DNA from: a virus
Taxonomy: Duplodnaviria; Caudoviricetes
DNA: 64,000 bases
Strand: one strand, 5' to 3'
IMG/VR virus record: IMGVR_UViG_3300028048_000039
Coordinates: 224,001 to 288,000 of that record
In this document: positions 8,154 to 47,078 of the stretch, piece after piece
Position numbering within the stretch: position 1 is the first letter of the stretch
Layout of the letters: the number at the start of each line of letters is the position of its first letter
Translations under genes and position numbers: made by a program
The notes under the pieces: generated by a model
Database searches by the model: none
Told to the model about the DNA's origin: nothing
The model's input: the letters and a program-made list of their open reading frames with translations, nothing else

Positions 8154-11100
8154 ATGAAACTTATTATATCAGAAGAACAGGAAAAGCATTTAGCAAAAAA
8201 TATATTATTAATTGAAAATCGTTTCGGAACAGCGAAGAAACGTGTTGCTGCTGTTATTGAACAATATTTTAACAAGGCACCGTGGCTTTATGAAACATAC
8301 CTTTCACAAACTAATCCTCGTGGATTGGACGGTTTAACGTATAAACGTGATGCTTTCCTCAATGACTTTTATCATGATTCAAATAGGAAGGAGTCGTCTG
8401 CTGCAAGATTGGCCCCATTGTTTGCTAGACTTGCATTTGAGGCTGGTTACGGAACGGTAGTAGCTGACGAAACTAAGATTAATAAGCTTAGGATGATTCT
8501 TAAGTATGTCTATGAAAATGCCGAGAGAATTGTACTGAATAAGGCTTTCCCAGAGGAGTCTCTTTACACAATGACCTATGATGAATTAAACAGGACCTAT
8601 GGCGAGGCGGTTGATAGACAAGAAGCCGAGGAAATGGAGAGGCTAAAAAATACCAAGTTTGCTGGTGAGTCAGATTATGAAATTCTTAGAGACGTTGATT
8701 ATAAGACGGCACATGAAATAGGAAACTACTCAAGTGACAAGGGCCGTGGCGCACTCTGCTACACCCAAAGTGATGGGACATGGAAAAGCTACAAGTCAAA
8801 TGATGTAAACAAAGTTTATATACTTTTGAAACCGGGATGGAAAGAAATGGAGCCAGTCCACGATAATGGTTCTACTGGTCCTGATGGCGATGCGTATGAT
8901 GCTTATGGTTTAAGTATGATTTATATCTTCGTTGGCCCGCCAGAGGTTGAGGGAGGGGTTGGTACATTAGCATACTGTAATGTTAGATGGAACCACCTTG
9001 CGACGTATGAAAAGGCCGAGGTGGACCATGCGCTTACAAAGGAACAAATTAGTAGACTTATTCAGGCTAACTTTGATAGCGTGTTTACGCCATATACAAC
9101 TGAAGAATTGGTTGCCAAGGGCTATGAACCAATTGACGAAGAAAAAATAATTAATGCTATAAAAGACGGGACAAAGAACACACATCGAGTTGGTGGTAGT
9201 GACTTATATACTGTCAGTGCCAGAAACCATAAAGAAAATATATATGATAGCAGAACGGATACCTTTGTTCTAAAGATGTGGGTTTATAGTATAAACAGTA
9301 TTAGTCTAGGCGAATCTGGTCAAAAATACATTCATATTGTCACGGATTCTAACAAGAGAAACCTCGTCGACACTAAGGGTAACTTACTATTTGGAAATCC
9401 TATTGACCCTGATGCATGGCCTATTCACATACAGACCCCGTATGGCTCCTCTACTAGTAATCTTATTCAGGTAATATATAGGTTAGGAGACCATGTTAAA
9501 TTTAATGTATTTAATCTTGGTACCAATTCTTTCTTATTTAGCCAAAAGAACGGAATGTTATTGCCAGATGAAGTAGCAATTAAGAACAACGGTTATGTAA
9601 CATACATATTAAAAACCGAAGACGGCATGAAACTTGGCGCTGTGGACATAAATGGTGAAGAAGTTGAAGTTGATACTGACTTTATCATGGATAATTCGAA
9701 AGAAATTGGTCGTGACGGTAACCTCATTGCTGTTAGATATGCTGGAGTATCTAATATTTTTGACAATAGTGAAGGACGTTTCTACTTTGATACTTGGGTT
9801 AATAATGTAAGCTTGTTTGATAAAAGTGACTTAGGTGAAACCTGTTATGTAATAACAGAAGCGGTTGGTGATAGAAATCGCCATAATTTAGGTTTCGTTG
9901 GTGGAAGAACATTATTCCCGATGGATGATAAGAGTGTTTGGGCTGATGGTTATGGGCGTTTATACGGAAGGAATGTAATAGCATTTTACTTTAGGGATGG
10001 AGCAGAAGAAGGTTATTGGAACCATGAAAATGGTTTCAAGATGTTAAGGGATATAGCAGATAATGTAGAAGAATTGAAATACTATTATCATGACGCATTT
10101 GTTTATGAACAGACTCCGAATTTATTGATATTAACGGAAGGAGATAATTCGTATAAGATTTTTAACAAGACCACTAAGACGACCTTTGAACGTGGAAGAT
10201 GGTTTGACATTGTAAGACCATTCAAACATAACGAAAATTATCTTTGGGCCGCTGATTGTGATAATTATGGGCATTTCATTGACAATGATATGAATTCTGT
10301 CTTTGGTAGTTACGTCTGGATAGATGATACTAGGACATTACAAGGCTTTACTCATGCAGTAAATGATAGTCCAGAAAATGATTTACACATATTAGTTGAT
10401 TATAACTTTAAACCTTTATTCGGAAAAGTAGATAATCAAAGAACTTGGTCAACTACTTTTAAAAAGTACAATGATTATACCGTCGTGATAGAGGTGGATA
10501 GTAAGTTTAATGTAATTTACGGTGGTAGGAAACTCTTATTTGGCGATGTTGATAATATAGATAATTGGGCAACCAGCGTATCTTTATTCAATGGTGCTCA
10601 GGAAGTTAGTGCTACTTTCGAGAATGGTCAGCATAAAGTATATAATTTATCTAGTGGTAGTCAGTATGATGTTAATAAAGAGTCATTGACAAATAGATTT
10701 AACGTTTTGAAAACACTTAATGATGGTAGGTTTTCTATAATATCATTAAAAAATGACCCTAAGGCGGTTAATATATATGATGCAGAAAATAACAGGATGG
10801 CATTAGATACATTTTTCACAAAGGCATTCTTGAAATTTGCTGGAAATGGTGTAATTGTCTTACTGTCTGAAGGTGAGGAAGGGGGTAGTTTTTATAGTAT
10901 GTACAACTTGAATGCCAATAAATTATATGCTACTCAGGGAATTAAGAAGTTCAAAAGGGTTGTTGGCGGAAATAATTGCTTAATTGTGTTCATAACGGAG
11001 AATCCTAGATACACATCCTTTAACGTCATTGACTTTAGGAGGGGACCAGAGTTTTTCTTGGATTATCCATTAACTATCAATGGGCAGTCAGCATATTACA

Positions 11101-12203
11101 AATCAAAGAATGAGTTAGGCTTCAATCTATGGCGAAACAGTACTAAATATAAATATATTTTCAGTTTAACCGAAGGTATAAAAGAACTCAACGGGTCAAC
11201 ACCGCAGAACACCGACGATGATGAGCCAGAACCACTATTTGAAGGGAAGAAGCTCGTAATTTCTAAGGACCAGGAAAATTATCTCATTGATAAGTTAAAT
11301 GAAGAGGTTTATCAAATGCCGGTTCCTAAGAAGGCAAATAAGCCTTATTGCATAAATCCTGAGAAAGTGCTGATTGTTAAGAAGTTCCTTGATAATACAT
11401 TTACGAAACATGATTATGAGAAGATAGGTCCTAATGGGCTTCCAACTATAATTAAGATTGTTTCAATGAACGCAAGCAATGGTGAGCCATTGAAGTATAT
11501 GTATCAGGACCAGCTCTTAGACCTCTTAATTGACAAGTTCCAGAAGATGTTTCTAGATGTTGATGAAAGACAAAGCTTCCTCCAGCAAGTGATGAATGAT
11601 TGGTTTGGGGACAAGATAAGCGCTTATGGCGGTCTTTCAGTTAATAGCCTCAATGAAATAACCTCAAAGGAAGTTACGGATGAGGCTAATAACGCTAATG
11701 TAGAACCAACCGACCCTCAATTAGAAGCAGGAAACTACAAGAAAGGACACATCTCTATCAAAGGAATGAGGATTGCGATAGAAAACCCAAAGGGGAGTAA
11801 GAGAAGCTATGTAGATAAAGATGGTAAGAGGAAATATAATGTAATGAAGAACCATTATGGCTACTTTAATGTGACAAAGGGAAAAGACGGTGATGCAGTT
11901 GATGTATTCCTTGGTCCAAATGTCGAGGATTTTGAGACGGTTTATTGCATTGACCAAAAGAATTTCCACGGTGACTTTGATGAAACAAAGGTAATGCTTG
12001 GTTTCAAGTCAAAAGAAGCCGCTAAGAAGGCTTACTTGAGGAATTATAGCCCAGATTGGAGAGGTTTTATGTATATTACTGCGGTTTCAATACCAGTATT
12101 TAAGAAGTGGCTCTACAGGGGAAGGAAGCAGAGAATCCCATTTGCTAAGTATGTAGAGATTAAGAAGAATAAGATAAGGGAAATTAATAAGGCAGTTAAG
12201 TAA
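8154..12203 (+). CDS. Polyvalent virion-cargo polyprotein: leader, RWNH domain, beta-repeat region, internal leader, unknown domain, C-terminal InPase-like domain
   Basis: MKLIISEEQ..LIE leader; YDAYGLSMI..RWNH; internal KKLVISKDQ..LNE; C-terminal NYKKGH..ENPKGS..HYGY..DGDAVDVF..FDETKVMLGF. Confidence 0.75.
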   Translation: MKLIISEEQEKHLAKNILLIENRFGTAKKRVAAVIEQYFNKAPWLYETYLSQTNPRGLDGLTYKRDAFLNDFYHDSNRKESSAARLAPLFARLAFEAGYGTVVADETKINKLRMILKYVYENAERIVLNKAFPEESLYTMTYDELNRTYGEAVDRQEAEEMERLKNTKFAGESDYEILRDVDYKTAHEIGNYSSDKGRGALCYTQSDGTWKSYKSNDVNKVYILLKPGWKEMEPVHDNGSTGPDGDAYDAYGLSMIYIFVGPPEVEGGVGTLAYCNVRWNHLATYEKAEVDHALTKEQISRLIQANFDSVFTPYTTEELVAKGYEPIDEEKIINAIKDGTKNTHRVGGSDLYTVSARNHKENIYDSRTDTFVLKMWVYSINSISLGESGQKYIHIVTDSNKRNLVDTKGNLLFGNPIDPDAWPIHIQTPYGSSTSNLIQVIYRLGDHVKFNVFNLGTNSFLFSQKNGMLLPDEVAIKNNGYVTYILKTEDGMKLGAVDINGEEVEVDTDFIMDNSKEIGRDGNLIAVRYAGVSNIFDNSEGRFYFDTWVNNVSLFDKSDLGETCYVITEAVGDRNRHNLGFVGGRTLFPMDDKSVWADGYGRLYGRNVIAFYFRDGAEEGYWNHENGFKMLRDIADNVEELKYYYHDAFVYEQTPNLLILTEGDNSYKIFNKTTKTTFERGRWFDIVRPFKHNENYLWAADCDNYGHFIDNDMNSVFGSYVWIDDTRTLQGFTHAVNDSPENDLHILVDYNFKPLFGKVDNQRTWSTTFKKYNDYTVVIEVDSKFNVIYGGRKLLFGDVDNIDNWATSVSLFNGAQEVSATFENGQHKVYNLSSGSQYDVNKESLTNRFNVLKTLNDGRFSIISLKNDPKAVNIYDAENNRMALDTFFTKAFLKFAGNGVIVLLSEGEEGGSFYSMYNLNANKLYATQGIKKFKRVVGGNNCLIVFITENPRYTSFNVIDFRRGPEFFLDYPLTINGQSAYYKSKNELGFNLWRNSTKYKYIFSLTEGIKELNGSTPQNTDDDEPEPLFEGKKLVISKDQENYLIDKLNEEVYQMPVPKKANKPYCINPEKVLIVKKFLDNTFTKHDYEKIGPNGLPTIIKIVSMNASNGEPLKYMYQDQLLDLLIDKFQKMFLDVDERQSFLQQVMNDWFGDKISAYGGLSVNSLNEITSKEVTDEANNANVEPTDPQLEAGNYKKGHISIKGMRIAIENPKGSKRSYVDKDGKRKYNVMKNHYGYFNVTKGKDGDAVDVFLGPNVEDFETVYCIDQKNFHGDFDETKVMLGFKSKEAAKKAYLRNYSPDWRGFMYITAVSIPVFKKWLYRGRKQRIPFAKYVEIKKNKIREINKAVK

Positions 12204-12205
12204 AT

Positions 12206-13021: not shown

Positions 13022-13023
13022 TG

Positions 13024-13058
13024 AAAAAGCCACAATCACTTGTGGCTTCTTCTTTTTT
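13024..13058. terminator. Bidirectional intrinsic terminator
   Basis: AAGCCACAA-TCAC-TTGTGGCTT hairpin plus T tract. Confidence 0.75.
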
Positions 13059-15807
13059 ATCTTACAACAACGTGTTTCATCTTTTTGTCGGTTGTTGCCT
13101 TGAATTTATAACCATTGTCATAATCCTTTTCAAGGAGTAAGTCGGTTATTGTATCTTCGATGTTCTCCTGAATTGCTCTCATAATTGGTCTTGCTCCAAA
13201 TTCCTTTTGTTCTGTTACTATATTGAATAGGAAATCAACCACCTTATCATCATAAGAACATTTATAGCCAATGCCACCAAGATTCTTGATAAACTTATCC
13301 AATTCAAGTCTTATGATTTGCTTGAGGTTATCATCAGAAAGACTGTTAAAATAGATGATATTATCAAGTCTATTTAAGAATTCTGGTGGAAACTTGCCCT
13401 TAAGCTGTTTCATGAGTATTTTCTTTGAATTCTTGCCTTCATCCTCAGAGAAACCAATGCCCTTTGAGAATTCGGTTGCTGCCTTTGTACCGATGTTAGA
13501 AGTAAAGAGAACAATCACATTCTTAAAATCAACCCTCATTCCTGAATTATCTGACAAGAAACCCTCATCAAGCACTTGAAGGAAAATGTTATAGACCTCA
13601 GGGTCTGCCTTCTCAATTTCGTCAAGCAAGAGGACGCAGTGTTTCTTATTCTTAATTGTTTCAGTAAGCTGACCACCTTCCTCATAACCTACATATCCTG
13701 GGTTTGAACCAATCAGCTTATTGACTGATACCTTATCAGAATATTCAGACATGTCAAAACGGACAAGATTATTTTCGTCGCCAAAGAGTTCTTTCGCAAG
13801 TTTCTTAGCAATGAGGGTCTTTCCAACACCACTCTTGCCAATCATTATCGCACTATACATGCAACCACCCTTATGAAGTCCAATTCTATTCCTCTTTAAT
13901 GCCTTGCATATCGTGTCAATAGCTTCATCCTGACCAATTACCTCGGATTTAAGCCTATCATTCATAGTAACAAGTCGTTCCTTATCATCAGACGTCAAAT
14001 TATTTACTGGTATTCCTGTCTTAATTGACACAATGTTGAGGATGTCGTCCTTTGTAATGTGTGGTGGGTTCTTCTTCCTGTCAGAAGCATCTTTCTTCTT
14101 GATGCTGTTATACTCCTTCTTGAGCGCTTTCTCATTTTCCATGAGTTCATCCACCTTATCATACTCTTTCTCAACCTTAGCTTTCTCAATATCCTTCTCA
14201 ACATTAACAATTTCACTTCTCTTCTTCTTCAATGCGTCGCTTTCCCACATTGTACCAATCATGGCGCCTATTTCATCAAGAATATCAATTGCTGAGTCTG
14301 GGAGATTTCTCTCCTTAATATACCTGTCAGCTAGATATACGCAAGCATCAACGGCTTCATCGTCATACTTTACTACGTGGAAATCTTCATATGACGCCTT
14401 TAATGCTCTCAAGATTTCAAGGCTCTCATTGACGGTTGGTGCTTCTACTACTATCTTCTGGAAACGTCTTGCGAGGCTAGGGTCCTTATCAAATGTCTTC
14501 CTGTATGATGCAAAGTCAGATGTACCAATTACCTGTATTTCCCCACTTTCAAGTGCTCGTGACAACATTGCAGAAATTTCATAATCATTCTTCCCCTTAT
14601 CAGCAAGCATGGCACCAATGTTATCCATAAAGAGAATATAGTTCTTGTCAGCTTTCACTTCATCAAGCACACCCTTAACTCTTTCCTCGAACATGCCTCT
14701 GAGTGTTGTTCCTGCCATGAGAGCAGTCATATCAAGGGAAACCAATACCTTGTTTGAGAGGAATTCCGGTACTTCCTTGTTGATTATCTTATTTGCAAGC
14801 GCCTCAGCGATGGCTGTCTTTCCAACACCTTCTCCACCAACAAGTATCATATTATTCTTCTTTTTCCTGCCGAGGATTCTTATAATCTCATTGGTTTCCT
14901 TTTCCCTCCCAACAAGCGGCTCAATCTTACCTTGTTCAGCAAGTTCGTTAAGATTAACACAATATTGTGATATAAACTTAGACCTTCCACCATGCTTTGG
15001 CCTGCCTGGGTCATTGACATCTATGCTACCATCAAATATGCCTGAGAGGAAATCTTCAGCGCTCTTCTTATCCTTGAAATTAAAGACTCTCGCCCTTGTC
15101 TTTCCCAGACCATCAATATTAATCTCTCCATTTGGAACTCTATCCATTGATTCGTATGGCCTCCAAGCACCAACATTGTTCTCTACTGTCCAGCTAAATA
15201 ACATATTTTCGCTTAATACAAGCCCGCTTTCTCCGACATTTCCGGTTGGTCTGCTCTTGATTAAGTCATCTAGAGTGTCAAAAATTCCAATGAATGCACG
15301 TAATGTTTGCTTCTTAGCATTACTCTCAATTTTATCATTTCCGTCAGAAAGCATCTTACTCCTTAATATATTATATGTAATACCAGCCTTGTTAAATGCT
15401 TTTTTTACTTTGTTATTGTCCTCATTATTGTTAAGGATAGCCAAGAAAACATGCTCGGTGGTGATTTCGTCACTTCCCATATCCTTGGCAATATCTTCGG
15501 AGTCGATGAACATCTTTGCTAACTTTCCATCAATGGTTGGTATCCTGTTCGCCTTTACAGCAGTAAGTGCCTTAGATGACACAGTGCTATACCACGTCGA
15601 ATAAAATTGGTCAATCGTCGTTGAAAGCATGGACATATTCAATCTCCTGAATATATTCGATTTTCTCTCAACAAAGATACCAAGTATAAAATAATCAATG
15701 TCAATGTTCAATGTAGGAAGTTCCTTTGAAAGGTTTTCCCTGATAAATGTCATTAAGTTATTAAATTCATTTGAAAACGCTAATTTCTTTTCCTCTTGCT
15801 GTTCCAT
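13057..15807 (-). CDS. clpC: ClpC/ClpA-type Hsp100 ATPase
   Basis: Clp N domain (ITTEHVFLAIL), two NBDs (GVGKT twice), UVR-like middle coil, RFDMSEY, PGYVGYEEGGQLTE, IGF ClpP-docking loop, FGARP. Confidence 0.88.
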   Translation of the reverse strand: MEQQEEKKLAFSNEFNNLMTFIRENLSKELPTLNIDIDYFILGIFVERKSNIFRRLNMSMLSTTIDQFYSTWYSTVSSKALTAVKANRIPTIDGKLAKMFIDSEDIAKDMGSDEITTEHVFLAILNNNEDNNKVKKAFNKAGITYNILRSKMLSDGNDKIESNAKKQTLRAFIGIFDTLDDLIKSRPTGNVGESGLVLSENMLFSWTVENNVGAWRPYESMDRVPNGEINIDGLGKTRARVFNFKDKKSAEDFLSGIFDGSIDVNDPGRPKHGGRSKFISQYCVNLNELAEQGKIEPLVGREKETNEIIRILGRKKKNNMILVGGEGVGKTAIAEALANKIINKEVPEFLSNKVLVSLDMTALMAGTTLRGMFEERVKGVLDEVKADKNYILFMDNIGAMLADKGKNDYEISAMLSRALESGEIQVIGTSDFASYRKTFDKDPSLARRFQKIVVEAPTVNESLEILRALKASYEDFHVVKYDDEAVDACVYLADRYIKERNLPDSAIDILDEIGAMIGTMWESDALKKKRSEIVNVEKDIEKAKVEKEYDKVDELMENEKALKKEYNSIKKKDASDRKKNPPHITKDDILNIVSIKTGIPVNNLTSDDKERLVTMNDRLKSEVIGQDEAIDTICKALKRNRIGLHKGGCMYSAIMIGKSGVGKTLIAKKLAKELFGDENNLVRFDMSEYSDKVSVNKLIGSNPGYVGYEEGGQLTETIKNKKHCVLLLDEIEKADPEVYNIFLQVLDEGFLSDNSGMRVDFKNVIVLFTSNIGTKAATEFSKGIGFSEDEGKNSKKILMKQLKGKFPPEFLNRLDNIIYFNSLSDDNLKQIIRLELDKFIKNLGGIGYKCSYDDKVVDFLFNIVTEQKEFGARPIMRAIQENIEDTITDLLLEKDYDNGYKFKATTDKKMKHVVVR

Positions 15808-15824
15808 TCTTCTCTATTTTTATA

Positions 15825-15856
15825 CAAATATACGAAAATTTTTCGATTTTTCCAAA
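15825..15856 (-). promoter_or_regulatory. Bacteroidota-type early promoter for clpC
   Basis: TTTG-N20-TATATTTG on the minus strand. Confidence 0.7.
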
Positions 15857-15910
15857 ATAAGGCTTGACAATCTTCTCCAATACATTTATTTTTTAATAAA
15901 TCAGTTTATT

Positions 15911-16627
15911 ATGGTACTTAAGAAGATTTATGACGAGGAAACCAAGACCCAGAAGGTTTGGTATGACTCCTCAATGATAGTTTATTCTGAAATGGTAGAA
16001 GATGCTAACGAAAATGTTGGTGACCTCTATATTGTCTTTAAAAATGGAAGCAAATATAAGTATTCTAAGGTAAAATTTGAAGATTATCTCATCTTCATTG
16101 GTGGTGGAACCGATGCATCACAAGGAAAGGCGCTTAATAAGGTTATTAAGGGAAAGTATGAGTACGAAAACGTTGGTACTGCTGACCTGGTTAAGATAAT
16201 GGCTGAATTGCAGGAAGCTAACAATGAGGCGGACAAGATAAAGGACACGTATTTCATATCTGGGCATAGGGATATTACTGAGAACGAGTTTGAGTACAAT
16301 TATAAACCAGTCTTGGAAGCATTGGCTTCATTGGACGTATATTTCGTCATTGGCGACTATCACGGCGCTGACATTATGGCGCAAAATTACCTCTTAGACG
16401 TGCTTCAGGTGGCCCCTGAGAGGGTTACTGTCTATCATATGCTGGAAGAACCGAAGAATAAGAACCCTAAGGTGGTTAATCTCGTTGGTGGTTTCAAGAC
16501 TGACGATGAACGTGATGAAGCAATGACCGCAAATTCCACCTATGATATTGCATTTGTTAGGAATATTAAGGAAAATTCCGGAACGGCACAAAACATACTA
16601 AGGCGCCACATTCTCAAAACTTTCTAA
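15911..16627 (+). CDS. KTSC domain + SLOG (YspA/DprA-like) fusion protein
   Basis: SSMI...LYIVFKNGSKYKY...SQGKALN (KTSC); FISGHRD...GDYHGAD...RDEAM...SGTAQN (SLOG). ATG at 15911. Confidence 0.65.
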   Translation: MVLKKIYDEETKTQKVWYDSSMIVYSEMVEDANENVGDLYIVFKNGSKYKYSKVKFEDYLIFIGGGTDASQGKALNKVIKGKYEYENVGTADLVKIMAELQEANNEADKIKDTYFISGHRDITENEFEYNYKPVLEALASLDVYFVIGDYHGADIMAQNYLLDVLQVAPERVTVYHMLEEPKNKNPKVVNLVGGFKTDDERDEAMTANSTYDIAFVRNIKENSGTAQNILRRHILKTF

Positions 16628-16681
16628 TTTTTGGTACTATTTATTGTTAAATAAAAATAACGATAAATATATCAAATAATC

Positions 16682-18241: not shown

Positions 18242-18278
18242 AAATAACGAATAATAACAAGAATAAAAATATAAGACA

Positions 18279-18518: not shown

Positions 18519-18541
18519 TAAGAATACGATTTCTTAGAATG

Positions 18542-18578
18542 AAATCCCCGATGGAAAACCATTGGGGATTTTTCTTTT
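18542..18578 (+). terminator. Intrinsic terminator
   Basis: AAATCCCCGATGG-AAAA-CCATTGGGGATTT plus T tract. Confidence 0.8.
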
Positions 18579-18639
18579 AATGAGAAAGCCGCTTTTTTCA
18601 TTTGAAAAACTATTTATGAAATAGTATAAATGTGTACTT

Positions 18640-21600
18640 ATGAAAGCAAAAAAACTGAGCAGGCAACATATTATTAAAGAGTCTCGTGAAGGGAAGAACA
18701 TAGCAAAAGCAAGGCATTATCTCGAATCTAATGGGTTAAGCAGAAGGGAATCTTGGGAAAAGGTTGATGATATTCGTACAAAGATACCTAACGTGAGAGG
18801 CGCACAATGTAAATTCCTTATCGGCGTTGCAAGATTATATATTAATGGTGAATTGGAAGACAGCATGGTTGTTTCTAATCTTAATAAAACACTTAAATAT
18901 GTAACTTCTGAAGCTCATGTTAATGAATATGATGAAAATCTGAATGGCATGTCTGCCAAGGACCTTATTGAACGTTTTAAGGGTGTTGCCGCTTCAGACC
19001 TGGATGCTGAAATCGAAAAAAGTAATGCAAGAAATTTAACTAGAAACGAGGATTACGTCATCATTCCAATTGACACCCCAGAAGAGGCTGTAAAATATAG
19101 AAAATACACAAGCTGGTGCGTAACTCGTTCTTCAAATATGTATAATAACTATACATCTGATGGCCTTGGAAGATTTTACTTCTGTCTCAGAAAAGGATTT
19201 GAAAACGAGCCAAAAGCAAGGGGTGATGGCTGCCCACTTGATAGTTATGGCCTTTCAATGATAGCTGTTTCCATAAACATGGATGGTAGCGTTAATACGA
19301 TTACTTGCCGTTGGAACCATGACAATGGTGGAAATGACAATATTATGACCGTTGAACAGCTTGAGGATATCCTAGGATTAAATTTCTACCAAACATTTAA
19401 GCCTTATTCAAGGGAAGAACTTCACGCAAAAGGTGTTATCTTTTTTGATGAAGTACAAGGACTTCTCGATTCCGGAAAGAAACCTAAAGATATTTTTGAT
19501 TGGGCTGGTTATTTCTATAATGGATTTGCATGTGTGCAATTAAATAGAAAATGGAATTTCTTAGACACTGAAGGAAAGCTCCTTAGCAATGTCTGGTTTG
19601 ATTGGGTTGGTGATTTCAACAAGGATGGATTTGCAAAGGTAGAATTAAATGGAAATTGGAATTTCTTAGACACTGAAGGAAAAATCATTAGTGATAAGTG
19701 GTTTAATTTGGCTGGTGATTTCTATAATAGAGTTGCAAGGGTTAAATTAAATGAAAAATGGAATCTCATAAACACCGAAGGAAAATTCATTAGTGATACA
19801 TGGTTTGAATGGATTGGTGAATTCCTTAAAGGACTTGCATGTGTGGTATTAAATAATAAATACAATTTTATAAACACCGAAGGAAAACCTATTAGTGATA
19901 CATGGTATAATAGTGCTGCTGATTTCCATGAAGGATATGCAATTGTAGGATTAAATGAAAAATATAATTTTATAAACTCCGAAGGAAAGCTCATTAGTGA
20001 TACGTGGTTTGATAGAGCTTGGGCTTTCCAGGATGGGTTTGCACTGGTGGAATTAAATGGAAAATGTAATTACATAAACACTGAAGGAAAGCTCATTAGT
20101 GATACGTGGTTTGATAGAGTTTGGGCTTTCCAGGATGGGTTTGCAGTTGTAGGATTAAATGGAAAATGTAATTACATAAACACTGAAGGAAAACTCCTTA
20201 GTGATACGTGGTTTAATTTGGCTGCTGATTTCCATGAAGGATATGCACAGGTGAGATTAAATGGGAAATTGTGTAAATTAGATAAGGAAGGAAATTTATA
20301 TGATTATTTTACAGGAGAATTAGTGAAAAAAGCAACTCTCCAAGAAAGCCATAAGACACTTTATATAACTGAAACACAACTTTCTGAAATAAAGAAAAGG
20401 CATAAGAAGAAAAAGAAAGACTGTTCTGCAATGGCACAAGTACATAATAAAGTAAATGCAGGAATTATGGATGGAATTACCTGTGGAGGAATGATGGAAG
20501 CCGCCGAACCAGAATCAAATGAATATAAAATTGGTAGTGAAGGTGGAAATAACGAATATTTCCATGCAATCAATGAAAGCCCAGAAGTTGTAAATGTATC
20601 TGGTTATGATTTATCATTCCAAAGCAAAGACTCCCACACATTCTTATGTATAGATGGTTATAATGATGTCTTTGTTTCAGATGGCCCTATAACCCACGGT
20701 GACTTTGTTGAAGAACTCCTTGATAGCGGTAAATTACCGGAAGAGGTATATGACATTATTATTGACAATGGAATAAAAATCCCTTACAATAATAAGAAAA
20801 CTGGACGTTATTGGGAAGAAGAGAATATACTGTCATTTTGGAAAACACCGTTGAAAAAGGCCGATAGAAACAACATCTTAGATGTCATTGATGCATTGAG
20901 GGAAAAATTAGAGGTTGATACAAATACTTTACTAATTGAATATTGGGATAATACGATTAAATCAATGTTGGTACCATATGCTTGGTTTTTCAATAACACA
21001 TTAGATATTTATATTGATAGACTGCGTGACCTTAGACCAATAGATAAAAATAGAACACTCTTTATGATGAAGTTAGATAATGGGGTGTGGTGCATAAATA
21101 GAACTGGTAGTGAGATTGAAGAGTTTAGTAAAATGAATATGATGGCGATTAGGGAAAATAAGATGTTAAATGAGGGTCTTTCCTCAAAGGACTATGACTT
21201 TAAGAAAGATTTTAAATCAATCCTAAAGTTCATGAGAAAGGAAGGACTCAAGGTTTATCCATACCCTAAGGTAAAGCTTAATTGGGAAGACCAAGATGGT
21301 TTATTCATTAGAACTGGTTACTATCTCCCTGATGAAAAGACCGTTGTCATATTCTGTAAGGACAGACACCCAAAGGACATTCTTCGTTCATTCTGCCATG
21401 AAATGATACATCACATGCAAAACCTTGAAGGAAAGGACCTTAACTTTACAACAACCAATGTAAAGGACGATGGTCGCTTGGAGAAAATTGAAAGCGAGGC
21501 ATACGTTAAAGGTAATATCTATTTTAGGAAATGGACGGAACATAAGAACAAGAAGGAGATGCTTAACGAAGGAAGAAAGAATAAAGTAGTAAAGAATGAT

Positions 21601-29407: not shown

Positions 29408-30139
29408 ATGGCAACGAAGGTTAGAGATAATATAGTTGAAATCAAGAAGGGCCAAGAAGGACATGGTCTCCTTATTGAACGAGATGGGTATGTCTCTTCC
29501 GAAGTTGGCAACAATAAACAACTCTTTGAAGCATATAATAAGATGAATGAGGCAGAGGGTGGTGAATTTCATTGCCCATACCCATTTATCGTTGATGCAG
29601 TTTTCCAGAAGTTCGGGATTGAGAACGCTAACGGTAGAATTTATCCCGAAAAGGTACTTAAGAGGGAAGTGGAGAGGTATATGGCCAACGTTAAGGAAAA
29701 GAGAGCCATGGGAGAACTTAATCACCCGCAAGAGCAGGTGATTGACCTTTCACGTGTGGCAATAAATATCGTTGAACTTCATTGGGAAAACCATACACTT
29801 GTTGGTAAATTAGAGGTTATTACAAGCCCAGGTTTTAGAAAGCATGGAATCATTTCATGTCAAGGTGACCAGGTTGCAAACCTCTTACTTCAAGGTTATA
29901 AGATTGGTGTCAGCAGTAGAGGGCTTGGAACCGTTACAAATAACATGGGAGTACTCTATGTTGCTGATGATTATGAGATTGTTTGCTGGGATGTGGTTAG
30001 TGACCCTAGTACGCCAAATGCATGGATTACTGATAGCTATGAGAAGCTTCAACCATTCATTGAAAGCAAAGAAACTGATGATTCAAAACCAAAATTATTT
30101 GAAGAACTTGACAAGTTTAATGAGTGGTTAAGTGATTAA
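29408..30139 (+). CDS. Prohead core protease (T4 gp21-like)
   Basis: NANGRIYP, AMGELNHP (His), IGVSSRGLG (Ser), WDVVSDPSTPNA (Asp); lies upstream of scaffold and capsid. Confidence 0.92.
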   Translation: MATKVRDNIVEIKKGQEGHGLLIERDGYVSSEVGNNKQLFEAYNKMNEAEGGEFHCPYPFIVDAVFQKFGIENANGRIYPEKVLKREVERYMANVKEKRAMGELNHPQEQVIDLSRVAINIVELHWENHTLVGKLEVITSPGFRKHGIISCQGDQVANLLLQGYKIGVSSRGLGTVTNNMGVLYVADDYEIVCWDVVSDPSTPNAWITDSYEKLQPFIESKETDDSKPKLFEELDKFNEWLSD

Positions 30140-32179: not shown

Positions 32180-34204
32180 ATGAAAGAATTTTTAGCTTCT
32201 GGACAGGTTGGGAACATTGAACTCAACGAACAGAAAAGAATTAGAACTGAAATTGCTAACCGTTGGGACTCACTCGGAATGACTGAGGGTCTTAAGGGTG
32301 TAGTAAAAGAGAATATTGCAATGCTTTATGAGAACGAAGCTAGACAGCTTCTTCGTGAGGCTTCTTCTTCAGAGAACAGTGGTTCTTTCGAGACTGTAGT
32401 ATTCCCTATCATCCGTCGTATCTTCAGCAAGTTGCTTGCTAATGATATCGTATCCGTACAGGCAATGAACCTCCCAGTAGGTAAGTTGTTCTATATGCTT
32501 CCTCAGACTTCTGAGAGAGAGTGGGAATTCCTTGGTGAGGAAGGAAGAGTAAAGAATGGTTCTGTAGGTCGCCACAAGGGACTTATGGGATACAGCCGTG
32601 AAGACCGTAACAATAACGGTAGAACTAGCGGAAATAGATGGAATCGTTTCTATCTTCCTGATGAGGTAGTTAATAACATGGAGTTTGAGTATCAGAAGGC
32701 TGACGGTACTTGGGAGAAAATCCCTGCTGACGGTCCAGTTGATTACACTTACTATGATGAGGCTGCTAAGGAATGGAAGACTAAACAGGGTCCAGTTGAT
32801 AACTATGACTCCGCTCTTCAGTATGCAATGAATACTGCTCCAAAGATTACTCTTCCTGATGGAACAAAGGTTGCTCCTGTAGTTCGCCAGGTTAAGCCAA
32901 CCGTTACTAAGTATCATAAGAGGACTCTCTATGACCTCTTCTACAATGACTTCCTTTATGACAACTCTAAGGGAAAGGTTCGTATCCGTGTTTCTGACGA
33001 GGTTGAGCCTGTTATCATGGTAGATTTTGAACCAGTTGAGCTTACTGACGATAACATTAAGCTTTATGCTGACGGTACTCTCCGTAACGTTATCCTTAAG
33101 ATAAAGGGCTTCTCTGATTACAAGCAGGGTAAGCTTATTGGTCCTGACGGAAACGAGATGGATTCTGAGGCTTTCTTGGCTTCTCTTAAGGTTTATGCAA
33201 AGGAAGATATCACTGGTGATAACACTTGCTTCGACAAGTATGAGGGAATTCCTTTCCGTGTAGTATCTCAGAGATATGGTCACGCTCTTGTAGAGGAAGG
33301 TAACTTCATTCTCCTTGACCTTGACCTTGCAAAGCCAGCTAAGAAGCAGGGTGCTTCCCTTGACGGATATCTTGGAATTGATAACCCAGGTGCTGACAAA
33401 CTTAAGGACATGTTTGAAGTAGCATGGGCACAGTATGATAGCCTTGAGCTTGAGACTGAAATTGGTGAGGTTTCTTTCGCACTCAGCAGCGTAACCGTTT
33501 CTGTAGAAGAGAGAAAACTTCGTGCAACTTGGTCTCCTGAACTTGCACAAGATGTTAGCGCTTTTCATAATATAGATGCCGAGGCTGAATTGACCGCATT
33601 GCTTTCAGAGCAGATTGCTGCTGAAATCGACCGTGAAATTCTCCGTGACCTTCGTAAGCTCGCTCCATGGCAGGCTCGTTGGGACGTTAATGGATGGAGA
33701 CGTCAGGCTGGTTTCTCAACCAACTACACTCAGAAAGACTGGAACCAGGAACTTATCACTAAGATTAACCAGGTTTCTGCTCAGATTCACAAGTCAACCC
33801 TCCGTGGTGGTGCAAACTTCATCGTAGTTTCATCTGAAATCTCTGCAGTATTTGATAACCTCGAATACTTCCATGTTTCTGATGCTAACGCTGAGGCTGA
33901 CCAGTACAACATGGGTATTGAGAGAATTGGTGCTCTCCAGAACCGTTATCAGGTTTATCGTGACCCATATTCTCCAGCATGGTCTATAATCATTGGTCAT
34001 AAAGGCAAGAGCCTTCTTGACACTGGTTACATCTATGCACCTTATATCCCTATGCAGTTGACCCCAACTATTTACAATCCTGAGAACTTCGCACCAGTAA
34101 AGGGTATCATGACTCGTTACGCTAAGAAGTGCGTTAATAACAGATTTTACGGGGCCGTCAAAGTGGATGGACTTGTACAGTGGGACCCACAGGAAATCAG
34201 ATAA
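32180..34204 (+). CDS. Major capsid protein (T4 gp23-like) with a large insertion
   Basis: DIVSVQAMNLPVGKLFY, RKLRATWSPELAQD, DAEAELTALLSEQIAAEIDREI, RGGANFIVVS, GYIYAPYIP, GIMTRYA. Confidence 0.95.
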   Translation: MKEFLASGQVGNIELNEQKRIRTEIANRWDSLGMTEGLKGVVKENIAMLYENEARQLLREASSSENSGSFETVVFPIIRRIFSKLLANDIVSVQAMNLPVGKLFYMLPQTSEREWEFLGEEGRVKNGSVGRHKGLMGYSREDRNNNGRTSGNRWNRFYLPDEVVNNMEFEYQKADGTWEKIPADGPVDYTYYDEAAKEWKTKQGPVDNYDSALQYAMNTAPKITLPDGTKVAPVVRQVKPTVTKYHKRTLYDLFYNDFLYDNSKGKVRIRVSDEVEPVIMVDFEPVELTDDNIKLYADGTLRNVILKIKGFSDYKQGKLIGPDGNEMDSEAFLASLKVYAKEDITGDNTCFDKYEGIPFRVVSQRYGHALVEEGNFILLDLDLAKPAKKQGASLDGYLGIDNPGADKLKDMFEVAWAQYDSLELETEIGEVSFALSSVTVSVEERKLRATWSPELAQDVSAFHNIDAEAELTALLSEQIAAEIDREILRDLRKLAPWQARWDVNGWRRQAGFSTNYTQKDWNQELITKINQVSAQIHKSTLRGGANFIVVSSEISAVFDNLEYFHVSDANAEADQYNMGIERIGALQNRYQVYRDPYSPAWSIIIGHKGKSLLDTGYIYAPYIPMQLTPTIYNPENFAPVKGIMTRYAKKCVNNRFYGAVKVDGLVQWDPQEIR

Positions 34205-36019: not shown

Positions 36020-36087
36020 AATTAACATATTTCTTATAATATACAAATTAAAAAAAGAAAAAGCAAGAGTTTTTCTCTTGCTTTTTA

Positions 36088-36975: not shown

Positions 36976-37088
36976 ATTTAAAATATTATTTACAACATAA
37001 AAATAGCATTAAATAGCTGTTTTTCGCCGAAAAAGTACGTTTTCCAGCTATTTATTGTAAATATACAAATAAAAAATTAATTTTACAA

Positions 37089-38966: not shown

Positions 38967-38999
38967 AGAAAAAAACTATTTATCTAAAAATATTTGACA

Positions 39000-40139: not shown

Positions 40140-40142
40140 ATT

Positions 40143-41093: not shown

Positions 41094-41112
41094 TAAAGCA
41101 AAAGAGTAAATT

Positions 41113-41141
41113 AAGGCCGTAGGATTTCCTGCGGCTTTTTT
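41113..41141 (+). terminator. Intrinsic terminator
   Basis: GGCCGTAGG-ATTT-CCTGCGGCT plus T tract. Confidence 0.8.
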
Positions 41142-41255
41142 CTTATCCAATTTTCATAGAAACTTAAATACAAAACTATTTATAGGAAATAATAGTGCCC
41201 AAAAATCTTTATTTTTTTGAGGTAAAACGTTATATTTTAATTAAAACTTTTAATT

Positions 41256-43373
41256 ATGGCTGAAAGAAATCAAACTATATTTCAAAGACTGAATAACATA
41301 TTCAGGTCATCTGGGAGAAGCGGTTCAATTGCAGATAATATGATTACCACACCAGCAAGTGATGTGGCTGAAAGAAATCGTGTCTTGTATACTACAAATG
41401 ACAAGGCGGATTATGAGAAAAAACTTAAGTCACTCCAGCAGCAGAAGTACCTCGCTTATCAATGGAAGAAGGCTGGTGCTGAAAATGCAATGGAGAGTCT
41501 TGCTGGCTATAACGCAGTTAAACTGATGTATAGGGATGTTGACCTTATGGATGGTTGCCCTGAAATTGGTACAGCACTTGACATTATTTCAGAAGAATGT
41601 TGTCCATTGACCAGCGATGGAAATATGCTAACAGTATCATCTCGTTCTCAGAGAGTTAAATCAATTCTCGAAGACTTGTTTGTTAATAGGCTTCATGTAT
41701 ATACAGAATTACCAATGATTGCAAGACATGTGACAAAGTATGGAAATACATTCATGCTTCTTAATCTTGACAAGGACAATGGTGTAATGGGTTGGATGAT
41801 GATGCCAGTTTATGAAGTTGATAGAGAAGAAAATGGTTATAGTGCATCTTACACAACAACAATGACGACAGGAAATGACCTTAAACCAGATGAAACAAGG
41901 TTTATTTGGAGAGGTCACAACGGTGATAACCCATACATGAATTGGCAAGTAGCACACTTCAGATTGTTAGAAGACTCATTCTTCCTTCCTTATGGTGTGT
42001 CAATGCTTCACAAGGCTAGACGTGCTTGGAGAATGTGGTCAATGATGGAAGACGCAATGCTCATTTGGAGACTTGATAAGGCTATCGAGCGTAGGGTGTT
42101 CAAGATATTTGTCGGTGGAATTGATGACGCTGACGTTCCTGCATATGTAAATCAGATTGCAGATAACTTTAAAAGAACACCAATTGTCGACCCAGGAACA
42201 GGCCAGATTGACCTTAGAAAGAACTTCATAGATGTTACTGGTGACTTCTTTATCCCTGTTAGAAGGGAAGACGCACCAACCCCAATTGAGAACCTTGCTT
42301 CACCTAATAGCCAGGTACAGATGGAAGATATTGAGTATATGCAGAATAAGATGCTTACCGCAATGAGAGTTCCAAAGACCTTCCTTAACTTCCAAGAAGC
42401 ACAGGGAAAGGGCCAGAACTTATCATTTATGGATGTTAGGTTCTCAAGAATGATAAATCGTATTCAGCAGTTCCTCCTTATGGAACTTAATAAGATTGCG
42501 ATGATACACTTGTTCCTCCTTGGTCTTAGAGATGAAATTGGAAACTTTACTCTTTCACTTAATAATCCTTCTTCTAACATTAAATCACAGGAACTTGACG
42601 ACCTTTCAAAGAAGCTTCAGGCATTACAGACTGCAGTTACCGACCCAGGTATTGGTATGCCGGTAATGTCACTTCATAAGGCATTGAAAGACATTATGGG
42701 TTATAGCGACTCAGAAATCAAGGATATGCTTAATGAAATTCGTCTTGAAAAGGCAATGGCAGCAGAACTTCAACAAACTGCGGCAATTATTAAAAAGACG
42801 GGAATATTTGATACCGTTGATAGAATATATGGTGATGTAGATGCACTTAATGCACCGCAGCAAGGACAACAGCAAGGACAAGGTGAAGAAGGTTTAGGTG
42901 GTGGAGGCAGCCTTGGTGGAGGCGGTGGCCTTGGAGGTGGCTTAGGTGGCGACCTTGGCGGAGAAGACCTCGGTGGTGAGGGTGACCTTGGTGGTGAGGG
43001 TGACCTTGGTGGTCTTGGTGAACCTGGTGGAGAAACAGGGCCAGATATTGGTGGAGCACCCGGCGAAACTGATATGGGTGGAGCACCAGCGGCAGATATG
43101 GGTGCGCCGTTAAGTGAAGCAAGAAAGAGAGCTAAGTCTTTTACCCAGCAATATCTTGAAATGCTTGCAGAGAATGAGATTAAGAGAGGCGAAGCACCAG
43201 AGAAGATTGAGGAGCCATTTGACTTCGACGAAAAGAACTCTCTCATGGAACATAGCATAAACAAGTTGTTTGACAAGATAGACACTCTTGTTGATGAAGA
43301 CGAAATGGAAAGAGAGAGAATATTAAACGAAGCAAAAGAGATTGAAAAAGTAGGTAAAAAAAGGAAAAAATAA
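41256..43373 (+). CDS. Portal protein (T4 gp20-like) with Gly-rich C-terminal tail
   Basis: PEIGTALDIISEE, VAHFRL, PYGVSML, MEDAMLIWR..ERRVFKIFVG, DFFIPVR, DIEY..LRVP. Confidence 0.93.
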   Translation: MAERNQTIFQRLNNIFRSSGRSGSIADNMITTPASDVAERNRVLYTTNDKADYEKKLKSLQQQKYLAYQWKKAGAENAMESLAGYNAVKLMYRDVDLMDGCPEIGTALDIISEECCPLTSDGNMLTVSSRSQRVKSILEDLFVNRLHVYTELPMIARHVTKYGNTFMLLNLDKDNGVMGWMMMPVYEVDREENGYSASYTTTMTTGNDLKPDETRFIWRGHNGDNPYMNWQVAHFRLLEDSFFLPYGVSMLHKARRAWRMWSMMEDAMLIWRLDKAIERRVFKIFVGGIDDADVPAYVNQIADNFKRTPIVDPGTGQIDLRKNFIDVTGDFFIPVRREDAPTPIENLASPNSQVQMEDIEYMQNKMLTAMRVPKTFLNFQEAQGKGQNLSFMDVRFSRMINRIQQFLLMELNKIAMIHLFLLGLRDEIGNFTLSLNNPSSNIKSQELDDLSKKLQALQTAVTDPGIGMPVMSLHKALKDIMGYSDSEIKDMLNEIRLEKAMAAELQQTAAIIKKTGIFDTVDRIYGDVDALNAPQQGQQQGQGEEGLGGGGSLGGGGGLGGGLGGDLGGEDLGGEGDLGGEGDLGGLGEPGGETGPDIGGAPGETDMGGAPAADMGAPLSEARKRAKSFTQQYLEMLAENEIKRGEAPEKIEEPFDFDEKNSLMEHSINKLFDKIDTLVDEDEMERERILNEAKEIEKVGKKRKK

Positions 43374-43397
43374 CACTATTTATTAGAAAAAAATGTT

Positions 43398-44303: not shown

Positions 44304-44305
44304 CC

Positions 44306-45037
44306 ATGAAAATTATATTGAACGAACAACAGTTTAATAGATTAGTTACTGAGGAGGTAATGATAAGCGTCCTTAATGAGTCTATTTTTGAAAAGGGCGA
44401 CCTTAAGCTTGCATTAAAGAGTATTAGAAATGCAATCATTGGTGGTGTTGCTGCTGCTACAATCATAGCTGCCATTGGACGTGCGAACATGCCAAGCGAA
44501 CAAAAGGATAGGCTTGTTGATGAAGTTAATAAAATTGAAATGGCAATTAACGGAGAAAAACAAGAGAATACAGCAAACTTAGAAGAAAAGATTAGGGCTT
44601 GTGAGGAATATATGGCTTACGCACTTAAGAACCAGGGCTATACCCTTAAATCCACCAAGTTAAAACCAGAAACACTTGTTAAGGTTGCAACAGAAAATAA
44701 TTTTGACCTCCCGTTCTTGATGGCTGCTGCTCATGATGAAAGCTGCTTTGGTGCTAACAAGAGGGCACAGAGAACAAATAGTGTGTTCTCAGTCGGTTCC
44801 TATGATGATGGAAGAAATGTTGTGACATATTCCGACCCTAATGATAGTGTTGCTGATTATATTAGTCTTCTTGAAAGACGTTATTTACGTAACGGCAAAA
44901 CTATCTTTGACCTTCTGGTTCCTGGTCAATTCGTTGACGTTGATGGCCATCGTTATGCAGGCAACAAAAATTATGAAAACGAATTAAAGAGCATAAGAAA
45001 TAGAATTTTAAAGATGTTCCCGGTGCTGGGTTCTTAA
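44306..45037 (+). CDS. Leader-bearing glucosaminidase (GH73/lysozyme-like) peptidoglycan hydrolase
   Basis: MKIILNEQQFNRL..LNE leader; MAAAHDESCFG, TNSVFSVG, RYAGNKNYE. Confidence 0.65.
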   Translation: MKIILNEQQFNRLVTEEVMISVLNESIFEKGDLKLALKSIRNAIIGGVAAATIIAAIGRANMPSEQKDRLVDEVNKIEMAINGEKQENTANLEEKIRACEEYMAYALKNQGYTLKSTKLKPETLVKVATENNFDLPFLMAAAHDESCFGANKRAQRTNSVFSVGSYDDGRNVVTYSDPNDSVADYISLLERRYLRNGKTIFDLLVPGQFVDVDGHRYAGNKNYENELKSIRNRILKMFPVLGS

Positions 45038-45052
45038 AAAAATGTTAATATT

Positions 45053-46132
45053 ATGAAGAAGAAACGTATTATAAAAGAAAGTCATATCAGAAAGATGGTT
45101 AAGGAGTGTGTTCAGCTTCTTACTGAGGAAAGGTATGATAAAATTAAACCAAGAGTGTTCCAAGTGTTTAAGGATTACTTTACTGGAGAAAAATTTGCAA
45201 GAAAGAATAGAGGTTATGCGTTCCAAGAAAATACACTTTTACACAGGGAATTTGAACACGTAGATAATCCACAGCACTTTACATATATCGAATACATGAT
45301 ACATCAATTCGAGGAAACATTCTTCCATGATGAAAAGTTTAGAGATTGTGCAGTTGCTAGATTAGCCCCTATGATTGCAAGGATGGCTCTAGAAGATGGT
45401 AATTTTCAACAATTGGGATATAACTGTTGGGTAACTGCTAGGTTGAGTAAGATACTTGGTCTTCTCTACCTCATGCAGAAAAATGGTCAAATAAAACTTG
45501 AAAAGGCTTTTCCTGATAACGTTATTGATACAATGACATTTGAAGAACTCAATGCAAAATATGGTCCAGTACTTGATGAACAATTAAGAAAGATGCGTGA
45601 GCAAATTAGGGAGAAGGCAGCTTCTTATACAGGTCAAAGCGACTATGAATTAATTGAAGATGTTGACTTTAATACTGCAAGGGAAATTGGTCAACATTCC
45701 GGTATTAATGGTAATGGTGCCATCTGTTACGCCACCCAGCCAATTACTTGGAGTAATTATACTGCTGATGGAAAATATAAGGTTTACGTCCTTCTTAAGA
45801 AAGGATGGAGGGATATTCCGGCAGAACATGATGATGAAACTAAGTCGCCTTATGATACTTATGGTATGAGTATGATTTTTGTTGGTGTTGCACCAGATAA
45901 AGAATACACTGGTGATGGAGAAATCGCTTTCTGTAATACAAGATGGAATCACGCCGCAAAGTACACACCTGAGAAACCAATGGATTACGCATTAGATGAA
46001 TTAGACCTTAGTAATTTAGTACAGAAACCATTTAATGATGTATTTACACCTTATACAAAGGAAGAACTTCGTGCAAAGGGGCTTCTTGATGATGAAAATG
46101 AGGAGGATGACAAATATGAAGATTTCGATTAA
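45053..46132 (+). CDS. Leader + stand-alone RWNH-domain protein
   Basis: IIKESHIRKMVKECVQLLTE; RLAPMIAR; AICYA; YDTYGMSMIF; RWNH. Confidence 0.75.
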   Translation: MKKKRIIKESHIRKMVKECVQLLTEERYDKIKPRVFQVFKDYFTGEKFARKNRGYAFQENTLLHREFEHVDNPQHFTYIEYMIHQFEETFFHDEKFRDCAVARLAPMIARMALEDGNFQQLGYNCWVTARLSKILGLLYLMQKNGQIKLEKAFPDNVIDTMTFEELNAKYGPVLDEQLRKMREQIREKAASYTGQSDYELIEDVDFNTAREIGQHSGINGNGAICYATQPITWSNYTADGKYKVYVLLKKGWRDIPAEHDDETKSPYDTYGMSMIFVGVAPDKEYTGDGEIAFCNTRWNHAAKYTPEKPMDYALDELDLSNLVQKPFNDVFTPYTKEELRAKGLLDDENEEDDKYEDFD

Positions 46133-47078
46133 GGAAAAGGACGTTAGAAAGATGGTTAATGAATGTCTTAATGTCATTCTTGAAAACCGTGCTCAAACTG
46201 CAAGGAAACGTGTTGAAGCTGTCATTAGGAGCCGCTTTGGTGGGTTTCCATTAGATAGAGTACACCCAAATAGAGAGGAAAACCCACACGGACTTACCTT
46301 ACTTGAACTTGTGGTTGAAACTTTCTTTGGTGAATTCTTCTCGGTAAGTGATATGGAGAATACTCCAGTTATAAGACTTGCCCCAATGATTATGAGAATA
46401 GCATTTGACCTTGGCTATCAAACGCCACAGGGAGATGCAGAGAAGTTGGAGAGACTTAGACAAATTGTGTTCTACCTCTACCTCGAATATAAATATGGTA
46501 GAATTGACCTTGCAAAGACATTCCCTGAAGGTTCATTAGAAACTGTTACATACGATGAACTGAACCGTACATTTGGAAGAAAGGTCGATGAAAAGTTTGC
46601 CGAGGAAGATGATGAGATTGAAAAGACTGATTTTAGTGGAAATAATGATTATGAAATTCTTGAAGATGTAGATTATAATACAGCACATGAGTTAGGCAGA
46701 CATTCTTGCCCAACAAGTATCATTTGCTACACTTCAAATCAATTTGTGTGGAATTATTATACAAACGGCGGAAGAAATAAGGTATATGTTCTCTTGAAAC
46801 CAGGTTGGAGGGACCTTAAGCCAGTTCATGATGACGGAAAGGAGAAGGGTAGTGCTTATGATACCTACGGACTTTCAATGATATTTGTAATCATTGCCCC
46901 ATCGGGAAAGATTGCTTGTGTAAATACTAGATGGAACCACATGGCAACATTTAAAGAAGGTTGTTGCTGTAATCAGGACCTTACGAGGTTAGACTTAAGC
47001 AAATTAGTTCATGATAAATTTAGTAACGTATTTAAACCATATACTCCAGAAGAATTAAGGAGAAAGGGTTTGAGGTAA
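46116..47078 (+). CDS. Leader + stand-alone RWNH-domain protein (tandem paralog)
   Basis: MKISIKEKDVRKMVNECLNVILE; RLAPMIMR; IICYT; YDTYGLSMIF; RWNH. Confidence 0.75.
   Translation: MKISIKEKDVRKMVNECLNVILENRAQTARKRVEAVIRSRFGGFPLDRVHPNREENPHGLTLLELVVETFFGEFFSVSDMENTPVIRLAPMIMRIAFDLGYQTPQGDAEKLERLRQIVFYLYLEYKYGRIDLAKTFPEGSLETVTYDELNRTFGRKVDEKFAEEDDEIEKTDFSGNNDYEILEDVDYNTAHELGRHSCPTSIICYTSNQFVWNYYTNGGRNKVYVLLKPGWRDLKPVHDDGKEKGSAYDTYGLSMIFVIIAPSGKIACVNTRWNHMATFKEGCCCNQDLTRLDLSKLVHDKFSNVFKPYTPEELRRKGLR

Follow-up and report, generated by a model that had tools for sequence, protein, structure and literature searches.

A repeated domain beside the head genes of a jumbo phage

The DNA considered here (the window, 64,000 nucleotides) comprises bases 224,001-288,000 of a 344,580-bp IMG/VR phage record, the completeness of which is estimated at 93%. 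On its plus strand four genes encode five copies of one protein domain, recognizable by a nearly invariant cysteine, a D-x-YG(L/M)SMI motif and the tetrapeptide RWNH; this domain and its possible role as packaged cargo are the subject of this report. The first gene, P0001 (8154..12203, 1349 residues), specifies a leader, copy 1 (residues 1-335, with the core encoded by 8643-9158), degenerate beta repeats, an internal leader-like helix and a C-terminal InPase domain (11718-12113) that is matched with an E value of 1e-48. The PHROG families matched by this last part are annotated as virion structural, minor head and DarB-like, and the InPase domain is classified by Iyer et al. as phage-type and probably packaged in virions (PMC5512222). 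P0002 (18640..24639, 1999 residues) is a polyvalent protein with two copies of the domain, arranged as a short leader, copy 2 (core 19021-19476), WG repeats, an unknown module, an HExxH zincin-like motif, a Zn ribbon, a pol-beta NTase, copy 3 (core 22936-23412) and degenerate WG repeats. P0003 (45053..46132, 359 residues) and P0004 (46116..47078, 320 residues) each consist of a leader and a stand-alone domain, namely copy 4 (core 45611-46114) and copy 5 (core 46617-47072). The start of P0004 is the ATG at 46116, immediately preceded by a GAGGAGGA motif.

A reading of the window from its letters alone, referred to below as the sequence-only reading, had described these five copies, and its observations proved accurate. 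RWNH lies exactly at 8985, 19309, 23242, 45941 and 46929, which are the only occurrences of this motif across all six frames of the window, and the cysteine motifs ALCYT, SWCVT, KLCYT, AICYA and IICYT, together with the D-x-YG(L/M)SMI motifs, are present in the open reading frames (ORFs) to which they had been assigned. When aligned with MAFFT the five copies are 26-44% identical across about 300 residues. The description of the family as one of five copies holds for the window and is too low for the phage, as a search of the whole record with a profile of the core identified 10 copies (E 1e-61 to 1e-22) spread over 9 genes. In addition to the five in the window, there is the suspected sixth copy, which begins with a leader at 63834..64000 on the plus strand and passes the window end; the full ORF of 696 residues (L004:335-2425) contains a leader, the domain and WG-like repeats. 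One more copy lies in a 711-residue ORF (L002) at 182 kb of the record, and three tandem, divergent paralogs of 859, 814 and 818 residues are situated just upstream of the window (L003:1874-9357, equivalent to 216,373-223,856 of the record). P0003 and P0004 stand alone and the other copies are accompanied by WG-type repeats, in agreement with the earlier statement that the domain occurs alone or fused to repeat arrays.

The ten copies fall into three subfamilies, with identities of 70-76%, 42-53% and 57-71% within them and only 18-32% between them, yet all the motifs are kept. The distance to the closest relatives from other phages is similar to that between the paralogs of this phage, and the subfamilies therefore appear to be old, with some recent local duplication. 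Some homologues carry ART-PolyVal or NUDIX domains. If a polyvalent protein is taken to be a polypeptide of a phage or conjugative element that joins at least two biochemically disparate effector-type domains, then P0001, P0002 and homologues are such proteins, and the domain is found beside known effector-type modules (InPase, NTase and zincin in this phage; ART-PolyVal and NUDIX in relatives).

Distribution and copy number

The domain is widespread in metagenomic data. Gut metagenomes of cattle, sheep and goats, from 11 studies in all, contain DNA nearly identical to that of the window. A profile restricted to the core matched at least 2,128 proteins (representatives of 90% identity clusters, 386-2000 residues in length) with E≤1e-5 among 8,000 candidates scored. 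A total of 36,317 matches to the A2 profile was rejected as a measure of family size, the count having been inflated by WG-repeat columns. In IMG/VR, 52 loci with the domain were located, many on contigs of 120-401 kb, and five complete jumbo phages possess 17, 6, 2, 2 and 2 full-length copies. Extreme beads-on-a-string versions occur in one of these phages (G304, IMGVR_UViG_3300028888_000044), in which a 3289-residue ORF contains six copies about 530 residues (about 1.6 kb) apart and a 2408-residue ORF contains three; these multi-copy regions lie at 203,951-212,671 and 372,461-377,866. Only 3 contigs from bacterial metagenome-assembled genomes (MAGs) matched, in a scan that was limited by pattern and is no proof of absence from bacteria. 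On one of these, L005, which was binned into a human-gut Spirochaetia MAG, the phage genes are arranged as in the window, and this contig is probably phage-derived. A tblastn search with representatives of two subfamilies against 50,697 GenBank phage records produced no match, even at an E value of 0.1.

Conservation and predicted structure of the core

Separate hidden Markov models (HMMs) of the two halves of the domain revealed that the N-terminal, helical part is variable and that a C-terminal core of about 155 residues is well conserved. In an alignment of 247 hits, which include six spurious fragments and about 240 real instances, residues Y14, C39, Y59, D84, Y86, G87, S89, R107, W108, N109 and H110 are each 96-98% conserved (numbering from P0004:193-347). 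The polar residues among these (C, D, S, R, N and H) are kept even in paralogs that are 18-30% identical, and the family is thus a real and strongly constrained one.

AlphaFold2 (AF2) models made with family alignments reached a pLDDT of 92 and a pTM of 0.83 for the 320-residue P0004 unit, and a pLDDT of 95.8 and a pTM of 0.90 for the core. The order of elements in the core model is beta1-alpha1-alpha2-beta2-beta3-beta4, followed by three short helices. Because beta3 and beta4 form a hairpin, D84-S89 at the start of beta3 must neighbour R107-H110, which lie just past beta4. Cys39, at the start of alpha2, may lie near these segments. The core is acidic (median pI 4.85) and is therefore not a DNA-neutralising filler. 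On the reading proposed below, it is probably catalytic or ligand-binding.

Search for a known fold and the question of PcfJ

No family model for the domain was found in Pfam, PHROGs, NCBIfam or PADLOC. A sequence-profile search of the PDB returned chance-level rows only (VPS28 with an E value of 0.004 on the helical part, and E > 0.7 for the core), Foldseek comparison of the full and core models with the PDB gave nothing at E≤0.001, and a feature search of the ESM Atlas yielded no usable match. In that atlas, proteins that resemble the domain in structure are joined to WG, ankyrin, leucine-rich (LRR) or pentapeptide repeats, an observation that is no more than a lead. The sequence-only reading had argued that a match to a characterised structural fold would speak against its suggestion of an enzyme, and no characterised fold was matched. 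C39, S89, D84 and H110 are invariant, and Cys-His-Asp or Ser-His-Asp hydrolase or transferase folds are absent from the Foldseek and VIA-align lists.

Two known folds were considered and set aside. The best rows among solved structures are nearly all GNATs, aligned over their first 110 residues or so, and the core does have the beta1-alpha1-alpha2-beta2-beta3-beta4 order of the GNAT N-terminal arm. The complete acyltransferase fold, with beta5/beta6 and the pyrophosphate motif Q/R-x-x-G-x-G/A between beta4 and alpha3, was not found. A His-Me nuclease of the EndoG type was considered from the resemblance of RWNH to DRGH and from the presence of EndoG in Foldseek rows; the TM-score is 0.22 and the conserved downstream metal ligand is absent.

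The sequence-only reading had also raised a relationship to PcfJ, and on this point it is statistically unsupported. To place the domain in PcfJ (PF14284), as a highly diverged member, is a matter of classification and is compatible with any functional reading. The two are of similar size and share an order of elements (strand, helix, (H/W)-C, helix with Y, G, three strands, N), with the cysteine at the start of the second helix and the asparagine past the last strand. A local hhalign alignment pairs the cysteine with that of the PcfJ HC motif and asparagine with asparagine. In a Foldseek search of BFVD, five predicted phage proteins labelled PcfJ-like were among the 50 best rows (probability 0.14-0.72). 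PcfJ occurs in mobile elements beside anti-defence genes; its gene on pCF10 adjoins one of the AcrIIA9 family, which is an anti-defence setting. However, the TM-scores to the PcfJ-like models are only 0.31-0.38, and the Pfam PcfJ model (cut-off 25 bits) matched no candidate in the whole phage record at E≤1; nor is PcfJ among the families matched at E≤1 by 78 aligned members of the present family. With hhalign, comparison with an 11-sequence PcfJ alignment gave a probability of 0.1% and an E value of 0.46, and comparison with a single PcfJ sequence was also not significant. That alignment combined pCF10 PcfJ with domains from seven Bacteroidota loci; a homologue search seeded with pCF10 PcfJ had returned almost only near-identical Enterococcus proteins. 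Further, most of the invariant residues of the domain (D-x-YG-x-S, R, W and H) have no PcfJ counterpart, and the function of PcfJ is itself unknown. The relationship is possible but unsupported, and we consider membership in this family doubtful. PcfJ is not mentioned in the paper on polyvalent proteins (PMC5512222), and a literature search for PcfJ, PcfJ-like or WG containing repeat in phages found nothing relevant.

A leader tag, a head protease and a promoter-like motif

Seven of the nine domain proteins start with an amphipathic leader of about 20 residues that ends in (L/I/V)xE. Its consensus is I-x-E-x-D-I-x-K-M-V-S-E-C-V, and it closes with LIE, IKE, LTE, ILE and LTE. The sequence-only reading had every copy follow a cleavage motif; as a pattern in the sequence, a leader ending in (L/I/V)xE precedes seven copies, and the three tandem paralogs depart from the rule in having their leader at the C-terminus. 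In this array only one base lies between a stop and the next start (TAA, then ATG). The three genes begin with M(I/W)(L/V)LNE or MWLNE, and each has at its end a leader-like tag that terminates in DVKTMVSECVKRIIERKLLK directly before the stop codon. They look like a polyprotein that has been split into genes right after each tag.

An HMM of the leader matched the seven domain proteins and, in the same phage, about seven small ORFs that are unrelated to them and lack the domain; on these ORFs the tag has the form I-x-E-x-x-[IL]-[RK]-K-[IL]-V-x-E-S-[VI] (positions 95292, 130955, 184434, 185957, 187277, 105883 and 314984 of the record, with 105883, 130955 and 314984 on the minus strand). Its presence on proteins that are otherwise unrelated fits a general targeting tag. 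Weak Pfam matches to ANTAR in homologues (P0084 residues 28-56 and P0344 residues 982-1005, with no stretch above threshold) are placed close to the beginnings of modules, a possible site of a leader-like helix; they are probably spurious and could mislead automatic annotation.

The head genes of the window are of T4 type: the capsid protein belongs with gp23, the portal with gp20 and the prohead protease with gp21; a large terminase is also encoded. The protease (29408..30139, plus strand) matches Peptidase_S77 with an E value of 3e-28 and is presumed to be the enzyme that would cut after (L/I/V)xE of the leaders. In its sequence the phage shows the T4 pattern of a terminal targeting peptide with (L/I)xE at its end, together with a gp21/S77 protease. 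As context, the major capsid protein (32180..34204, plus strand, 674 residues) has L-R-E↓A about 20 residues before the conserved N-arm, at a position analogous to the cleavage site of T4 gp23, so that the cleavage motif is consistent within the phage. The Pfam Gp23 match of this capsid protein is in two stretches, which implies that it has a large insert, of some 300 residues, that the T4 model lacks. The portal gene (41256..43373, plus strand) is followed on the same strand, about 1.7 kb downstream, by P0003 and P0004.

A promoter-like motif, CTATTTAT, is found 20-80 nt upstream of the domain genes, of terL, of the portal gene and of other head genes. It occurs at 8124..8131 on the plus strand, upstream of P0001, and at 18610 (P0002), 43376 (the P0003/P0004 operon), 63805 (the sixth copy), 37048 (terL) and 41176 (portal); further sites in the window include 3120, 16637, 24680, 27090, 38976, 48208 and 62098. 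There are 20 occurrences in the window compared with about 5 expected, and nearly all are in gene orientation just upstream of starts. We regard it as a candidate late promoter element and, because it precedes both, the domain genes and head genes appear to be co-regulated. The same motif lies about 20 nt upstream of MILNE, 16 codons into the listed ORF of the first tandem paralog, and this is probably the true start of that gene. Among 55 related loci, the genes near those for the domain include homologues of u24733/u27766, two unknown genes of the head module (13-14 loci), TerL (10), a ClpB-like gene (8), KTSC (8) and the prohead protease (7).

A proposed role and its competitors

These features suggest that the domain is the constant module of a head-packaged, protease-trimmed polyvalent cargo carried by jumbo phages, as yet uncultivated, that live in the gut communities of ruminants and other hosts. 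We hold this proposal to be as likely as not. The full unit would consist of an amphipathic leader helix, an (L/I/V)xE site, a variable helical subdomain, and the acidic alpha/beta core of about 155 residues with its near-invariant Y, C, Y, D-x-Y-G-x-S and R-W-N-H, usually followed by WG-type beta repeats or by further effector domains. The domain genes would be transcribed with the late structural genes, and the leader would direct each protein to the core of the assembling prohead. There the gp21-type S77 protease would remove the leader and cut multi-module chains at (L/I/V)xE, and the resulting pieces would leave the head with the DNA. In the host cell the constant core might serve as a catalytic or small-ligand-binding head, most simply with a site of the Cys/Ser-His-Asp type, and the variable repeats would select its partner.

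Several observations weigh against this proposal. Tripeptides of the form (L/I/V)xE are common by chance, and packaging and cleavage are read from motif and context. T4-type N-terminal targeting does not predict the C-terminal tags of the three tandem paralogs. Invariant polar residues may also be structural, and no known enzyme fold or active-site template was matched in the Foldseek and VIA-align lists. The synteny is weak evidence and not independent, since the phages of the 55 loci are related to each other. Finally, metatranscriptome contigs cover the genes but also their opposite-strand neighbours, and expression is thus unproven.

An N-terminal domain that is conserved and C-terminal repeats that are swappable constitute the usual layout of paralogous receptor-binding proteins, and a late structural-type promoter motif on the genes would be equally at home there. 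The proteins might accordingly be external parts of the virion, such as fibres or decorations, anchored by the domain and binding surfaces through the repeats. We think this most improbable. The chains hold intracellular enzyme domains (InPase, NTase and zincin, with ART-PolyVal and NUDIX in relatives), the arrangement of leader and protease site is that of head-core cargo, the genes cluster with head rather than tail genes, and two copies have no repeats at all.

A different possibility is suggested by the neighbours of the polyprotein genes. A gene for a ClpB/ClpC-like double AAA+ protein (13057..15807, minus strand) lies between P0001 and P0002, and the Clp-like and KTSC genes flank the polyprotein genes in the window (13057-16627); the same trio is found on L005:890-6774 with a polyprotein that joins NTase, the domain and WG repeats. 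The Clp-like gene is beside domain genes in 8 of the 55 related loci as well as on L005, and a constant head with variable repeats resembles a substrate adaptor. Conceivably, then, the proteins are not packaged and act late in the infected cell, for instance as adaptors that pass repeat-bound targets to the AAA+ machine. However, the association with Clp is confined to a minority of loci, which come from related phages, and a leader that is common to unrelated small ORFs, together with S77-type sites, suits targeting to the head better. We judge this explanation very unlikely. A SprT-like metalloprotease gene is also present between P0001 and P0002 (12206-13021), 2 nt past the P0001 stop.

Relation to known packaged proteins

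If the domain belongs to packaged cargo, its closest parallel in organization is provided by the polyvalent proteins described by Iyer, Burroughs, Anand, de Souza and Aravind in 2017 (PMC5512222), which occur in phages and conjugative elements and are likewise long chains of unrelated effector-type domains; their genes lie close to those of the virion, and packaging and injection have been proposed for them. Many uncharacterised and possibly enzymatic "LPD" domains are listed in that work (PMC5512222). In contrast, the present domain matches no Pfam model, the LPD families included, and recurs both along single chains and in 9 different genes. Its typical partners are WG-type repeats, a subject absent from that work, and the head protease, not an embedded MPTase, appears to cut its chains, at (L/I/V)xE.

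The T4 internal proteins (IPs) offer a mechanistic parallel. IPII and IPIII reach the prohead core by means of a short N-terminal sequence, and the gp21 protease trims IPI-III and Alt (PMC9958956). Like T4, the present phage has gp23, gp20 and gp21/S77 genes and proteins in which a short N-terminal tag precedes an (L/I)xE-type site, and in T4 the delivered IPI acts on host defence and Alt on RNA polymerase. The tag described here has a different sequence and a length of about 20 residues, and it is found at internal positions and at C-termini as well. The cargo is far larger (up to 1999 residues), multi-module and present in ten copies, and no sequence similarity to the T4 IPs was seen.

In the giant phages phiKZ and SPN3US, paralogous head or ejection proteins (families A/PF12699 and B) vary strongly in copy number between related phages, and several are processed by the prohead protease (PMC5694885). 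These families introduce a further alternative to an active cargo, namely that the domain is a structural block without catalytic activity from which the head interior is built (an inner-body component, part of an ejectosome, or a filler for pressure or volume) in which the invariant residues serve folding or self-assembly. Giant phages do possess head paralog families of variable size with no known enzymatic role, SPN3US family B having 2 to 20 members (PMC5694885), and the copy number of the present family likewise varies, from 2 to 17. The failure to match an enzyme fold is in keeping with such a block. However, eleven residues, including the six polar ones (C, D, S, R, N and H), are conserved to at least 96% across subfamilies that are only 18-32% identical, which is stronger than is usual for purely structural modules. 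The core is acidic, and polyvalent chains join the domain to genuine enzyme domains. Nor is there detectable homology: P0001-P0004 and the other copies have no match to PF12699, the phiKZ inner-protein family, and none was found by tblastn in GenBank phages. The proteases differ as well, an S80 enzyme with S/A-x-E sites in phiKZ/SPN3US and an S77 enzyme with L/I-x-E here, and the motif set of the present family is far more rigid. On balance a purely structural block seems unlikely to us.

As a whole, head-packaged cargo is a known strategy, exemplified by the T4 IPs and Alt, by the phiKZ/SPN3US proteins and by polyvalent proteins, with the Dar proteins of P1 as a further precedent; what is new is the domain itself. 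A more specific form of the cargo proposal, which we advance tentatively and would not call probable, is that the core represents an unrecognised superfamily of enzymes or ligand-binding proteins and acts as the constant warhead of programmable effectors delivered from the capsid. Each phage would then deploy 2-17 versions, in which swappable repeat arrays (WG, and possibly Ank, LRR or pentapeptide) direct a single chemistry to a range of host proteins, such as those of defence systems.

Significance

Hardly any jumbo phage of the rumen or gut has been cultivated, and the means by which these phages subdue their hosts have yet to be worked out. The domain described here is among the most amplified and most rigidly conserved of their protein modules: its metagenomic members number in the thousands, and a single genome can have as many as 17 full copies. 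Were it a delivered enzyme, it would represent a new activity in the conflict between phage and host, and its compact core of about 155 residues offers a target for structural and biochemical work; should the warhead proposal be true, few effector families known from phages would have expanded as far. A structural role, in turn, would show how T4-like giant heads fill and organise their interior. Either way the family deserves a definition, for the large ORFs that contain it are now annotated only as "WG repeat" or "hypothetical".

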